Source: a virus
IMG/VR virus record: IMGVR_UViG_3300043331_000441
Location: 1 to 64,000 of that record
Length of the DNA stretch: 64,000 nucleotides
Direction: 5' to 3' (one strand)
Position numbers and translations under genes: made by a program
Shown: positions 52,988 to 59,572 of the stretch, piece after piece
Numbering within the stretch: position 1 is the first letter of the stretch
How the letters are laid out: each line of letters starts with the position of its first letter
Notes under the pieces: model-generated
The model's database searches: none
What the model was told of the DNA's origin: nothing
What the model saw: only the letters and a program-made list of their open reading frames with translations

Positions 52988-53773
52988 ATGGGACGCACCG
53001 AAACAAAGCTCACCGCCGGGTGGGTGGTCTGCGGTGCGATCTGGCTGGCATGGGCCGTGTTTGCGTTTGGTGCCAACCAAGCGAAGGACTCGAACTACCG
53101 CGACAAGCTCGACGCCGCAAAGACACAACAGGTGTTCTGGCGCGTCGTGGCAGGAAGAGAACAGGGCAACGAGAGCGGGGTGCTGAACAAGCTCGCGAAC
53201 GATTTACGAGCGACGCCCGCGTCGGAATTGGTCGACTTTCGTGGCGACTCCAACCGGTACGGCGGCATCACAGAGGCTCTCGGCTACGACCCGTTCAATG
53301 GCCCTAACTGCCAGGAATGCGGGCCGCTCGACGACGCAGTCGTAGCGGACGCAATCGAAATCAAGAAGGGTGGGTTGCAGGCGGTGGTGGCACGCCTGCA
53401 ACCTCCCAAGCCAGATCACGTCAGTGGACCACCGCTTGTCCTATGGCTCGTGTGGCTTGTATCGCTGCCGCTTGCGGTCTTCGGTTACAAGCGCTACGCA
53501 CAACACCGCCATGAAGTGAAGTACGGCGAGTACACACAGGAACTCGAACTCGCCGATTCGTTGTCAAGCGCAATGAAGGGCCTGCCCTCACCGCAGGCCG
53601 ACGAGCTGGGCGTCCTTCGCAGCAAGCTGCTGGAAGGAATCGATCAGCGCGTCAAGTACGGAGAAGATGAGGCGAAGCAGATGCGTCTGGCGGCGCTGAA
53701 GGAAGAAGCGCTCGCCACGCTCGAAGCCATTGATGAGGGCAACCGTGTCCTCGCGAAAGGAGAACACCAATGA
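52988..53773 (+). CDS. two-TM membrane protein
   Basis: Hydrophobic helices near N-terminus and middle. Confidence 0.7.
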   Translation: MGRTETKLTAGWVVCGAIWLAWAVFAFGANQAKDSNYRDKLDAAKTQQVFWRVVAGREQGNESGVLNKLANDLRATPASELVDFRGDSNRYGGITEALGYDPFNGPNCQECGPLDDAVVADAIEIKKGGLQAVVARLQPPKPDHVSGPPLVLWLVWLVSLPLAVFGYKRYAQHRHEVKYGEYTQELELADSLSSAMKGLPSPQADELGVLRSKLLEGIDQRVKYGEDEAKQMRLAALKEEALATLEAIDEGNRVLAKGEHQ

Positions 53774-54498
53774 AGCGTCTCAAGTTCATCCTCGCCTCCA
53801 TCTGGAGCGCGTTCCTTGGCAAGAAGGAAGGGCAGTACCACCGGGAGATCCTCGACCTCACCTATGAACAGATGACAGACGGTCTGGTCGAGGTGAAGCG
53901 TGACCTCGCAAACGTCGCGACTGCGAAGCATCGCATCCTGCAGTTGGTCGAGAAGGCACGTACCGAAACGCTCACGTTGGAGAGCAACGCCGTCGGCTTC
54001 CTCAACGCTGGTGACGAGCAGAGCGCACGCGAGAGCCTGGAGCGGAAGGCTGCCGTGTCTCAGCAGCTAGTGCAGCTGGAAAGCCAGGCGGCAGGCATCT
54101 CGATTCGACAGAAGGCGCTGGAAGACAACCAGCGTGAGCTGGAAACGCGCATCTCGGCGTTCAAGGCGGAGAAGGAAGTCATCAAGGCCCGCTACTCGGC
54201 AGCGCAAGCCACGGCGCGGATCGGTGAGACCGTCACCGGGATCAGCAAGGACGCGCGTGAGGCAACGAAGGCCGTGGGTCGGATTACCGAGCAGACGGAG
54301 GAGCTGGAGGCACGTGGCGACGCGCTCTCCGAGCTGATCCAGGGCGGCAGCCTGGAAGACGTGTTCAACCCTGGGCAGTCACCGCTCGACAGGCGGGCGC
54401 TCGAAATGGCGCGCAACGAAGCGGTCGAGAACGATCTCGCGCGGCTGCGTAAGCAGATCGGCCAGGGCACCCCTGCGCCCACGGGTGGTGGCAGCTGA
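53770..54498 (+). CDS. pspA: PspA/IM30 (ESCRT-III-like) family protein
   Basis: Long coiled coil; A...GDE..ARE.L.RK; K.V.KARY.AA.A. Confidence 0.8.
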   Translation: MKRLKFILASIWSAFLGKKEGQYHREILDLTYEQMTDGLVEVKRDLANVATAKHRILQLVEKARTETLTLESNAVGFLNAGDEQSARESLERKAAVSQQLVQLESQAAGISIRQKALEDNQRELETRISAFKAEKEVIKARYSAAQATARIGETVTGISKDAREATKAVGRITEQTEELEARGDALSELIQGGSLEDVFNPGQSPLDRRALEMARNEAVENDLARLRKQIGQGTPAPTGGGS

Positions 54499-56172: not shown

Positions 56173-56682
56173 ATGACCGAGATCGTCCCCGTCCCATCGC
56201 AAGGCATCCAGCTACTCGCCGAGTTAGAGAAGGCGGGGGCGATCACCAACACCGCACTCATCCTCCCACCAGACATACCGTACGAGCAGTGTGAATCACT
56301 CGCGACGATGCTCGGTCAGCTGCACCGCACGTCGCAGTGGCTGATCGGTGATTTGCTCAATCACATCGAACGGGTCTACGGTGAGACGTATGCACAGGCA
56401 GCGGAGGCAACAGGTCTCTCGAAAGGGGCGCTCATGAACTACACCTCTGTCTGCGCGCACATACCGCGCTCACGGCGGCGGCACAACGTGCCGTTCTCAA
56501 CCCACATGGAAGTTGCGTATCTCGAACCGACCGAGCAGGAACGCTGGTTGAGCCAGGCTGCCGCGAATCGGTGGACAAAGGAAGAACTGCGTGCTGCGAG
56601 AAAAGCAGAGGGCAATCACTCGCCAGCGGTAGTAGAATGCGTATGTGCAGCGTGTGGACATGTCCACACGCACACCGCATAA
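56173..56682 (+). CDS. LmbU-like DNA-binding protein
   Basis: SQWLIGD...Y.QAAEATGLS...L.NY...RRR..V.FS.H.EVA...WL..A. Confidence 0.75.
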   Translation: MTEIVPVPSQGIQLLAELEKAGAITNTALILPPDIPYEQCESLATMLGQLHRTSQWLIGDLLNHIERVYGETYAQAAEATGLSKGALMNYTSVCAHIPRSRRRHNVPFSTHMEVAYLEPTEQERWLSQAAANRWTKEELRAARKAEGNHSPAVVECVCAACGHVHTHTA

Positions 56683-56705
56683 AAGGAGAGCAACAGCAAT
56701 AATAT

Positions 56706-56810
56706 GCGCCCGTAGCTCATTGGTAGAGCACCGGTCTGATTGGCCGGAGGTAAGCGCGAAAGCATAGGTGGGTTCATCGCCACCGAAAGGTTCGATTCCT
56801 GCCGGGCGCT
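56706..56810 (+). tRNA. tRNA-Ile(GAU)-like gene with 32-nt T-stem insertion (56756-56787)
   Basis: Acceptor GCGCCCG/CGGGCGC; D GCTC/GAGC; CCGGT-CTGATTG-GCCGG; T stem GC|insert|AGG-TTCGATT-CCTGC. Confidence 0.65.
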
Positions 56811-56839
56811 TACGCAAGAGAGCAGCGCACTCTCTAGGG

Positions 56840-56922
56840 CTGGGAAACGGGAAGCCGAAGCGTGGCAGCGGGGGCGCCCCGCGCAGAAGCCAATCCGTGC
56901 GATGCGGAGCACCGTTTCCCAG
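56840..56922 (+). ncRNA. four-way-junction RNA candidate between the two Ile-like tRNAs
   Basis: 11-bp helix CTGGGAAACGG/CCGTTTCCCAG enclosing three hairpins. Confidence 0.5.
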
Positions 56923-56933
56923 TACCGACTTAT

Positions 56934-57086
56934 CGGGATGTAGCTCAGTGGTAGAGCACCGGTCTGATGTACCGGAGGACGCGTCTGAAAAGACATAGGC
57001 ATTCCAGAAGGGCGACGTATTCGCGCTTTTGAGAAGCCGGAGCGAAATACTCCGTAAGCCGAAAGGTTCGAATCCTGCCATCCCGA
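56934..57086 (+). tRNA. tRNA-Ile(GAU)-like gene with 81-nt T-stem insertion (56983-57063)
   Basis: Acceptor CGGGATG/CATCCCG + A73; CCGGT-CTGATGT-ACCGG; AGGAC; GC|insert|AGG-TTCGAAT-CCTGC. Confidence 0.7.
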
Positions 57087-57088
57087 CT

Positions 57089-57550
57089 ATGAAACGACCA
57101 ACACTCATATGGGCACAAGACCTCGGAGAACCCGAGTGCCCCTACGCACGACGCTGGGTTCTCAATCTTGGCTTCGCCAGTATTCGCGTCCACCACTGGG
57201 TCCGCAGCGACGACAAGCGCGCGCCGCATGATCATCCATGGTGGTTTCTGACACTGGTGCTGTCAGGCTCCTACGAGGATTGGGGCTATCCGGAACGCAC
57301 CGCCAAGGGCGCCCCGCGCCTGGATCACAAAACAGTCGATCCGCTCAAACGTGGCAGCGTGCGTTACCGGCCAGCCCATCACATTCACTCGGTGAGCGTC
57401 CCGCCGGGCGGATGCTGGACAGTCCTCCTCACGGGAAGGGAGCGCAAACAGTGGGGATTCTGGACGCGCCGGAAGGATGGCGCTGCGCGTTTTCTGCGTT
57501 CTGCGCGATACTTCTATAAGCACGGGCACCATCCGTGCGATCAGGAATGA
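57089..57550 (+). CDS. cupin-fold phage protein
   Basis: VHHW..SD..R.PHDHPW.F.TLVL.G.Y.D...HSV. Confidence 0.8.
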   Translation: MKRPTLIWAQDLGEPECPYARRWVLNLGFASIRVHHWVRSDDKRAPHDHPWWFLTLVLSGSYEDWGYPERTAKGAPRLDHKTVDPLKRGSVRYRPAHHIHSVSVPPGGCWTVLLTGRERKQWGFWTRRKDGAARFLRSARYFYKHGHHPCDQE

Positions 57551-57647: not shown

Positions 57648-57878
57648 ATGACGACTTCATGGGCGGTTCAATCTGCCGAAAGTGTCGTACGCATGTCTAA
57701 AAACGTCTTCTGGGAGGGCGTGTCTGCCAAGGATGACCCGCGTCGGTTCAGACGTCCAGTACGGGTGGATGGAAAGAATTGCCGTGACCGTCAACCCTGG
57801 GGAGGATTCACCGACCAGGAGCGATGTGAATGCGTCGGAGAATGCGAGTACGATCGCCGACAGAATGAGGCTTCGTGA
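57648..57878 (+). CDS. hypothetical protein
   Basis: Cys-containing ORF; start uncertain. Confidence 0.45.
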   Translation: MTTSWAVQSAESVVRMSKNVFWEGVSAKDDPRRFRRPVRVDGKNCRDRQPWGGFTDQERCECVGECEYDRRQNEAS

Positions 57879-58167
57879 CCCAGGACTCCTCGCGCTTCTT
57901 TCGCATACGTATGACGAATGCGCATTGTGTGGCACCACACAAAATCTGCACCTGCACCACGTGCTCTACCGCTCGCAAGGAGGTGATGATGTCCGTGGGA
58001 ATATCGTTTGCCTCTGCCGCTCGTGCCATGAAGCAGTTCACCGAGGCGATAAAGCTGCTCTCCACGCACACATCCGCCTCTTCCGGCCAGACGTCGTGGA
58101 ATATCTGCAAGGACGACTAGGTGTAGATGCAGCGAATGCACGTTTAGCGTCCGATGCCTGTGGATAA
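57865..58167 (+). CDS. HNH endonuclease
   Basis: CALC...HLHH...SQGG.D...N...LC..CH...H. Confidence 0.85.
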   Translation: MRLRDPGLLALLSHTYDECALCGTTQNLHLHHVLYRSQGGDDVRGNIVCLCRSCHEAVHRGDKAALHAHIRLFRPDVVEYLQGRLGVDAANARLASDACG

Positions 58168-58539: not shown

Positions 58540-58935
58540 GTGGAAGTTTCCCCGGAGGAAAGGGCATGGGCTGCTGGTCTCTTCGAGGGCGAGGGTTGTC
58601 TTGCATACAGCAACGGACGCCCGCGTCTACAACTCAAGATGATCCATGAGGAAAGCGTTCGACGTGTTCATGCAGCGATTGGGCTTGGCAAGGTGTACGG
58701 GCCGTACGGCCCGTACACCAGCCAATTCGGTAGTAAGCCTGTGTTCATGTGGGTCGTCGACCAAGACGAGGTTGCGGAGGCAATCGAACTCTTGCGTCCC
58801 CATCTGTCAGAGTGGGCCGCCAAACGGCTTGATCGAACTGCGGACGAACGCATCAATGATGTTCCTCGTGCGGTGCGTAAGCCCAAGCGTCGCCGCCCGC
58901 CAGAGAACACAGATGCCGACGACTGGTTGTCATGA
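58540..58935 (+). CDS. single-motif LAGLIDADG homing endonuclease
   Basis: RAWAAGLFEGEGCL...L.LKM...G.G.V...WVV. Confidence 0.8.
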   Translation: MEVSPEERAWAAGLFEGEGCLAYSNGRPRLQLKMIHEESVRRVHAAIGLGKVYGPYGPYTSQFGSKPVFMWVVDQDEVAEAIELLRPHLSEWAAKRLDRTADERINDVPRAVRKPKRRRPPENTDADDWLS

Positions 58936-59405: not shown

Positions 59406-59409
59406 ATTT

Positions 59410-59481
59410 GCCCCGGTCGTTCAGCGGCCAGGATGCCGCCCTGTCGAGGCGGAGACACGGGTTCGATTCCCGTCCGGGGCG
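59410..59481 (+). tRNA. tRNA-Asp(GUC), no encoded CCA
   Basis: GCCCCGG/CCGGGGC; CCGCC-CTGTCGA-GGCGG; ACGGG-TTCGATT-CCCGT. Confidence 0.9.
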
Positions 59482-59482
59482 T

Positions 59483-59572
59483 CTGCGCAGAGGGGAGACG
59501 GCGCGCGCAGCGCGGAGTCGATGAAGGAACAGAACCTCCTCCCTTCATCGCCTGCGGGATCGGACTCCCCTC
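59483..59572 (+). ncRNA. pseudoknot element E2
   Basis: CTGCGC/GCGCAG crossing GAGGGGAG/CTCCCCTC; inner CGATGAAGG/CCTTCATCG. Confidence 0.6.

Follow-up and report, generated by a model that had tools for sequence, protein, structure and literature searches.

The window, the whole stretch of DNA analyzed here, comprises the first 64 kb of an IMG/VR phage record of 130,556 bp that is estimated to be 92% complete. Its plus strand carries two tRNA look-alikes, W1 (56706-56810, 105 nt) and W2 (56934-57086, 153 nt), which are separated by a structured 123-nt spacer (56811-56933, same strand) and followed, also on the plus strand, by a gene encoding a 153-aa, thiol-dioxygenase-like cupin (57089-57550). 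W1 is the first member of the tandem pair and lies 278 nt upstream of the cupin gene. The cupin ATG is located 2 nt past the discriminator base of W2 (CU-AUG), with no Shine-Dalgarno sequence visible. The spacer folds into a 12-bp closing helix, CUGGGAAACGG/CCGUUUCCCAG, around several hairpins (MFE -53.1 kcal/mol, z = -2.78); it has no match in Rfam and no homolog among the cupin loci that we collected.

A blastn search of the W1/W2 region against 50,697 phage records returned no match, and exact DNA patterns representing the tRNA body and the insert/T-arm junction gave 0 matches in IMG/VR. Contigs from four soil DNA runs that map to the region are short and are identical where they overlap, showing no variants and no insert-free form. 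Two HNH-endonuclease-type ORFs (57682-58167 and 58540-58935) lie between the look-alike/cupin unit and a tRNA-Asp gene (59409-59483), a placement typical of homing-endonuclease genes beside phage tRNA clusters. The window also encodes a PspA/IM30 family protein at 53770-54498 (Pfam PF04012, E = 5e-18). Finally, a 71-nt tRNA on the minus strand of G000 (116052-116122; L004:12058-12117) is called Ser(AGA) by ARAGORN; it has no long variable arm, and its Rfam alignment is restricted to model positions 6-65.

Read directly from the sequence, W1 possesses the acceptor stem GCGCCCG/CGGGCGC, the D arm GCUC/GAGC, and the anticodon arm CCGGU-CUGAUUG-GCCGG. Its anticodon-type loop, CUGAUUG, supplies U33, GAU, U37, and G38; the discriminator is U, and no CCA is encoded. 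The outer GC of the W1 T stem occupies 56754-56755, AGG resumes after the insert at 56788-56790, and the T loop UUCGAUU and then CCUGC follow. W2 is built likewise, with the acceptor stem CGGGAUG/CAUCCCG, the D arm GCUC/GAGC, a 5-bp anticodon stem, and the loop CUGAUGU (U33, GAU, G37, U38). Its outer T-stem GC lies at 56981-56982, AGG follows the insert, the T loop UUCGAAU precedes CCUGC, and the discriminator is A (A73). Together, the T loops have the consensus GGUUCGAWUCC. Positions 8-36 of the two look-alikes are nearly identical, and their 7-bp acceptor stems are wholly different, each fully compensated. A preliminary description of this DNA had given these coordinates and arms, the split T stem, and inserts of 32 and 81 nt, and our reading agrees with it to the base.

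Insert 1 (56756-56787, plus strand) places 32 nt in the 5' strand of the W1 T stem. Judged from its sequence and from the fold of the insert alone, it presents, in order, a hairpin GC-GAAA-GC, the joiner AUA, a helix GGUGG/CCACC topped by an 8-nt loop (GUUCAUCG), and GAA. Insert 2 (56983-57063, plus strand) places 81 nt in the 5' strand of the W2 T stem; here sequence and folds give a hairpin GUCU-GAAA-AGAC, AUA, a helix opening with GGC, and GAA. The GGC helix of insert 2 carries a long hairpin and a second hairpin, GGAG-CGAAAUA-CUCC, and the GCC partner of GGC is ambiguous. A hammerhead-like reading of CUGAUGA...GAAA was also considered and set aside: the motifs, inspected by eye, fall within hairpin loops, and Rfam gives no match.

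The insert 1 apical loop, G-U-U-C-A-U-C-G, contains the anticodon-loop-like UUCAUC. This loop is similar to GUUGAUCU and GCUGAUCU, which come from the inserts of two metagenome loci described below, L016 and L018, with the apical loops G-U-U-G-A-U-C-U and G-C-U-G-A-U-C-U, respectively. On their letters (UUCAUC or YUGAUC), the apical loops of W1, L016, and L018 resemble an additional anticodon loop of the Ile type. The W2 arm contains no such Ile-type loop.

The exact register of the interruption is ambiguous in the window, as GC|insert|AGG and GCG|insert|GG each yield a 5-bp T stem. Across W1, W2, L016, and L018, GYG|insert|GG yields a 5-bp stem, and GC|...|AGG fits only the window copies. Thermodynamic folding does not choose between these T-stem registers or a variable-arm model; rather, the multiloop penalty favors non-tRNA folds over all of them. 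The T stem (GCG..GG/CCYGC) hardly varies, so continuity of the stem across the insert is consistent with, and not proven by, the data.

Both look-alikes score above the 29-bit gathering threshold of the Rfam tRNA family RF00005 (41.8 bits for W1 and 46.5 bits for W2), with alignments that cover the full model (1-71). These alignments assign the inserts to the variable region and flag two nonstandard T-stem pairs in the NC line. Default ARAGORN calls neither W1 nor W2. The preliminary description had recommended running tRNA finders with intron options: for ARAGORN, that option merely forces meaningless anticodon-loop introns. With the inserts removed in silico, ARAGORN reports two tRNA-Ile(GAT) genes of 73 nt each, regardless of which cut register is chosen, which bears out the claim that removal of the inserts restores a cloverleaf. 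As encoded, neither copy has a contiguous 5-bp T stem: next to the T loop stand only AGG/CCU (or GG/CC), and the outer pairs are 32 or 81 nt away. Moreover, a decoding tRNA-Ile has U33, GAU or LAU, A37 (t6A), and A38; positions 37/38 are UG in W1 and GU in W2. In tRNA-Ile with U36, A37 is the expected base. The phage record contains no further tRNA-Ile. Apart from tRNA, no described Rfam family matches at E<=10, and this includes the hammerhead, twister, pistol, hatchet, and HDV ribozymes.

The downstream protein belongs to phrog_4786 (E = 3e-31), annotated as "cysteine dioxygenase". Its AlphaFold model has a pLDDT of 87, and the top Foldseek matches are thiol, ergothioneine, and mercaptosuccinate dioxygenases; a profile search against PDB sequences yields nothing significant. 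There are 227 cupin homologs at E<=1e-10. Only a single MAG contig contains the cupin among 185,579 species genomes, and tblastn matches it in 100 cultured-phage records. The closest relatives (P0001-P0011) are 70-83% identical. The closest relative with any upstream sequence, the L009 cupin (74% identity; 16 nt of upstream sequence), has an ordinary Shine-Dalgarno-led start; the locus of another close relative, L010, includes no upstream sequence at all. Single-protein searches of IMG/VR with both neighboring genes gave no matches. The 169-aa ORF upstream in the window was considered as a counterpart of the methyltransferase that precedes the cupin in the Caulobacter phage CcrColossus; the two are unrelated.

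The surroundings of related cupins place W1 and W2 within a family. An alignment of 23 cupins (A1) retrieved 160 loci, 80 from metagenomes and 80 from IMG/VR. A covariance model, R1, built from an alignment of 13 normal-size look-alikes neighboring these cupins (A2), was run over all of the loci. In 61 of the 84 distinct loci that have at least 200 nt of upstream sequence, the 3' end of a look-alike falls within -40 to +60 nt of the cupin N-terminus. Heavily expanded look-alikes that R1 misses were recognized by script or by eye in several of the other loci; with R1, actinophage-type cupins (30-40% identity) show no look-alike. R1 scores W1 at 40.1 bits over its full length and W2 at 38.1 bits, with the 3' part of W2 misplaced by the model. 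Tandem pairs of look-alikes also exist in L011, L024, L076, and CcrColossus. In A2, 99.3% of the cells are paired, and 14 of the 21 pairs show compensatory changes. Of 500 shuffles, not one attains the observed value on four of five measures; for further pair types, two attain it. Selection on the structure of the tRNA body is strong, and the pairing of RNA and cupin gene is conserved.

Most members of the family carry an anticodon-type loop of the form C-N-G-A-U-N-N in which N33 is usually A or G. Because A33 and G33 are incompatible with a normal decoding loop, most family members are not decoders. Valine-type (NAC) loops are present in a minority of members, and U33 is likewise a minority feature, found in the window copies, L058, L062, L116, and L088. 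Extra folded domains have been added at differing sites. Specifically, the D loop is expanded in L020, L022, L026, L050, and L085; the anticodon loop in L007, L008, L013, L029, L036, L037, L039, L046, L087, L088, L090, and L102; and the T loop in L062 and L116. The T stem, as in the window, is a further site. Named viruses are among the carriers. Paraglaciecola Antarctic GD virus 1 has an unannotated 124-nt look-alike upstream of its cupin (L008:2162-2285), with RNA ligase and phosphatase genes just upstream of the look-alike. CcrColossus (NC_019406.1) has two unannotated look-alikes (L007:1404-1676 and ~1697-1940), each exceeding 200 nt owing to a large anticodon-loop insert (the first is 273 nt, as delimited by script) and located upstream of a methyltransferase-cupin pair. 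In both records, the downstream cupin is again annotated "cysteine dioxygenase". A literature search of incomplete coverage turned up neither a tRNA-like family linked to a cupin gene nor T-stem inserts in bacteria or phages. The cupin-linked tRNA look-alikes are a large and apparently undescribed family.

The T-stem insertion site recurs in other loci. A script identifies a T stem split in its 5' strand in W1, W2, L016:245-379, L018:583-723, and L019:280-427; the same site is used, by eye, in L083:662-836 and perhaps in L014:2370-2492. L016 and L018 repeat the plan of the window inserts: a G-closed GAAA-loop hairpin, a short joiner, and a helix that opens with GG. The GAAA-hairpin-then-helix plan that the preliminary description noticed in W1 and W2 therefore extends to two further loci. 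In W1, W2, L016, and L018, the GAAA loop of the first hairpin is kept on a stem of 2-4 bp, with the closing pairs C-G, U-A, U.G, and C-G, respectively. The second helix begins with GG in all four, its third pair being U-A in W1 and C-G elsewhere. The main anticodon-type loops of L016 and L018 carry A33. A long-arm fold that RNAfold prefers for L016 was discarded, as it is not compensated in L018. The four to five T-stem-insert members outside the window are too few and too divergent for covariation statistics on the insert. Recurrence of plan and site in unrelated metagenome contigs (L016 and L018), together with the compensated acceptor stems of W1 and W2, argues for more than chance. A search with the pattern ATAGG..CCGAAAGGTTCGA returned 15 matches, none clearly tRNA-shaped on inspection (L170 is ambiguous). 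The two-helix T-stem arm is a rare variant within the cupin-linked look-alike family.

The T-stem site also accepts additions in tRNAs with normal anticodon loops. L019:280-427 is a 148-nt tRNA with the loop CUUAUAA (UAU) and a 75-nt, nearly perfect hairpin arm in its T stem. It lies ~390 nt upstream of a cupin whose start is ordinary and Shine-Dalgarno led. In addition, phage tRNA(CAU) genes with normal CUCAUAA loops, in the IMG/VR loci L190, L230, L246, L248, L257, L259, and L267, contain a 5-10-nt bulge in the T-stem 5' strand at the position of the window's inserts (GCR-bulge-GG UUCGAAU CCCGC). An insert at this site thus need not abolish tRNA function.

The junction between look-alike and cupin is tight. 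In five loci, the start codon lies 0-3 nt from the look-alike 3' end: the window, L036, and L024 read A|CU AUG, L018 reads A|CUU AUG, and L016 reads A|UG. In ~35 other distinct loci, which include L030, L035, L038, L041, L042, L053, L055, L070, L079, L100, and L120, the cupin frame leaves the discriminator directly (...gua|CUG AUC AGG UGG...). There, no AUG, GUG, or UUG exists between the look-alike and the conserved W..LGLPECPY, indels in this interval are in frame, and the reading frame extends across the entire tRNA shape. The base following the discriminator is C in the listed frame-A junctions (CUN, CAN, CCA, CGA) and in most others. Where a homolog has an ordinary start, its first residues are M-[KR]-I-x-W, which puts the homologous N-terminus at the RNA 3' end, on the discriminator. 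Thirty of the ~35 loci without a start codon have the anticodon-type loop's AUN in frame and stop-free. Gene callers translate through the RNA at such loci, producing database proteins such as P0110 and P0042. A GUG in the T stem is not conserved.

What are the inserts? The preliminary description had raised two possibilities, a new class of short tRNA intron or an unspliced, tRNA-scaffold RNA bearing an extra module. In the first case, an activity of the host, or an as-yet unrecognized one of the phage, would remove the inserts to generate a functional tRNA-Ile(GAU). Precise removal does produce a textbook cloverleaf that ARAGORN calls tRNA-Ile(GAT), both copies possess U33 and GAU, the phage has no other tRNA-Ile, and a shared insert plan is what one would expect of a recognition element for a splicing factor. 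However, the region 56600-57200 has no match to an Rfam intron or ribozyme at E<=10, and the phage record, at 92% completeness, has no splicing endonuclease (PF01974), RtcB, or RNA ligase. The spliced product would retain U37 (W1) or G37 (W2) next to U36, and the insert-free relatives are mostly A33 or G33 non-decoders. Relatives also insert elsewhere with the same cupin linkage, which points to scaffold expansion. Furthermore, the two junctions are neighbors on the same strand, a geometry that does not permit a bulge-helix-bulge; the earlier statement that the inserts fit neither group I/II nor archaeal introns is borne out, and the intron class itself appears improbable. Even less credible is the notion that W1 and W2 are decaying tRNA pseudogenes with junk insertions. 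While tRNA finders miss both copies and position 37 is abnormal, all stems are intact, the insert architecture is kept between the copies and in L016 and L018, and covariation and synteny are strong across the family. In particular, the acceptor stems of W1 and W2 are different yet fully compensated, which speaks decisively against decay, and we give this idea almost no weight.

Alternatively, W1 and W2 could be working five-arm tRNAs that are charged with isoleucine and decode AUC/AUU unspliced, the arm aiding IleRS, TilS, or another enzyme. U33 and GAU in both copies and A73 in W2 agree with this proposal, as do the resemblance of the arm loops UUCAUC (W1) and YUGAUC (L016/L018) to Ile-type anticodon loops, the normal CUUAUAA loop of the L019 tRNA(UAU) with its 75-nt arm at the same T-stem site, and the tolerance of phage tRNA(CAU) genes for bulges there. 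We nevertheless judge it unlikely: U37 or G37 is unusual for a U36 tRNA, the W2 arm has no Ile-type loop, the main loops of L016 and L018 carry A33, and a decoding role leaves the tight coupling to the cupin start unexplained. A further possibility is that the tRNA shape is a cis-acting part of the cupin mRNA, rather than a separate RNA, that controls or drives translation, with the T-stem arm as a regulatory add-on. The start codon could be hidden or presented inside the fold, or the shape could function as a tRNA-mimic initiation element. The ~35 loci with no ATG, GTG, or TTG before W..LGLPECPY, their frame-keeping indels, the in-frame AUN in 30 of them, the gene calls that read through the look-alike (P0110, P0042), and the window ATG with no preceding Shine-Dalgarno sequence all speak for such a role. 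Against it, an in-frame AUN is an automatic consequence of the constant tRNA length, given the frame at the junction, the T-stem GUG is not conserved, the window itself has a plain ATG, and, on geometric grounds, a linker of 2-5 nt would not bring the acceptor end to the decoding center. We know of no bacterial mechanism in which a tRNA shape acts in cis to start translation. A cis-acting role of this kind strikes us as somewhat less plausible than decoding by five-arm tRNAs.

Our preferred interpretation, which we hold with slightly better than even confidence, is that W1 and W2 stay unspliced and are expanded representatives of a family of Ile/Val-tRNA-shaped phage RNAs that are co-transcribed with the cupin gene and end at the cupin. 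The absence of support for splicing, the non-decoding relatives, and the varied expansion sites that share the same gene partner together lead us to interpret the inserts as built-in arms of a scaffold. The second of the earlier possibilities, an unspliced scaffold RNA with an extra module, thus fits the comparative data from the family. The hypothesis is that W1 and W2 RNA does not decode and that the insert, as an integral fifth arm, presents a surface for binding. The tRNA shape would be recognized by RNase P and RNase Z of the host, which would cut the transcript, releasing stable tRNA-shaped RNAs. A start codon 0-3 nt from the RNA 3' end and the absence of a Shine-Dalgarno sequence in the window suggest such excision and a near-leaderless cupin message. 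Specifically, the cupin message would be left with a 2-nt leader (CU-AUG) and would be effectively leaderless, by analogy to mitochondrial tRNA punctuation. Partners of the RNA could be the cupin, IleRS, or a host enzyme that targets tRNA. Several observations sit uneasily with this interpretation. U33 and a plain GAU set W1 and W2 apart from most members, phage tRNA(CAU) genes tolerate bulges at the T-stem site, the L009 cupin has its Shine-Dalgarno-led start, and the leaderless-message idea leaves unexplained the ~35 loci with no AUG or GUG after the look-alike.

A bolder proposal, doubtful in our view yet not far-fetched, is that the tRNA fold, and not a Shine-Dalgarno sequence plus start codon, defines the cupin start, making the tRNA shapes an obligatory 5' module of the message. 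Punctuation by RNase Z and RNase P could produce a leaderless message, or the module could be a tRNA-mimic initiation element, and the T-stem arm could serve as a regulatory or partner-binding handle. If so, bacterial viruses would have their own version of mitochondrial tRNA punctuation or IRES-type tRNA mimicry.

If our preferred interpretation, the unspliced scaffold, is correct, the tRNA shape serves phages as a modular scaffold onto which RNA domains can be grafted at several sites, the T stem included. The constant partnership with a thiol-dioxygenase-like cupin and the frequent lack of start codons between RNA and cupin both point to a new RNA-protein system or mode of gene expression. 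The look-alike/cupin system is common in soil and aquatic phages and is also present in cultured-phage records. The look-alike genes also pose an annotation problem, being overlooked by standard tRNA finders and read through by gene callers.

Comparison with known systems places W1 and W2 near, and outside of, several of them. Like a canonical tRNA-Ile(GAU) (RF00005), they have a 7-bp acceptor stem, a D arm, a 5-bp anticodon stem with a 7-nt loop, U33, GAU, and GGUUCGAWUCC. Unlike it, they have 32 or 81 structured nt interrupting the T-stem 5' strand, U37 or G37 rather than A37, no encoded CCA, an RNA end that abuts the start of a protein gene, and relatives that mostly do not have U33. In tRNA, the T stem is a contact site for EF-Tu and stacks into one arm with the acceptor stem, the arm used by RNase P, RNase Z, and the CCA-adding enzyme. 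Group I and II introns are characterized by an RF00028-type core, a location in the anticodon loop, and a length of roughly 200 nt or more, whereas these inserts are 32 and 81 nt long and lie in the T stem. Archaeal tRNAs contain noncanonical T-arm introns that are spliced via a bulge-helix-bulge. These introns resemble the window inserts in being T-arm intervening sequences whose removal restores a cloverleaf; W1 and W2, however, cannot form the bulge-helix-bulge, the host is bacterial, and the phage record encodes no splicing endonuclease. Lak megaphages reportedly carry "enigmatic" tRNA introns, apparently in the anticodon-loop region. They, too, are short inserts in phage tRNA genes that fall outside the self-splicing classes, but the W1 and W2 inserts occupy the T stem and are part of a cupin-linked family in which most members free of inserts are not decoders.

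Mitochondrial tRNA punctuation offers a likeness of arrangement, with tRNA shapes that abut coding sequences and excision that would create leaderless messages; it is an analogy only, and in many family members the junction lacks an AUG. The YrlA/bacterial Y RNAs (RF02553) show that a tRNA-shaped module can serve as a non-decoding scaffold, and such RNAs are also present in phages. W1 and W2 have no RF02553 match and no Ro-binding stem; their 5' and 3' ends pair as an ordinary acceptor stem, and they retain the anticodon arm. Finally, class II tRNAs and allo-tRNAs are said to bear long variable arms, and they share with W1 and W2 an extra helical arm between the anticodon arm and the T loop and, consequently, a five-arm shape. 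In class II tRNAs and allo-tRNAs, a single arm, at positions 44-48, leaves before an intact 5-bp T stem. In W1 and W2, only two to three T-stem pairs adjoin the T loop, the outer two to three pairs lie beyond the insert, and the insert itself comprises at least two helices.
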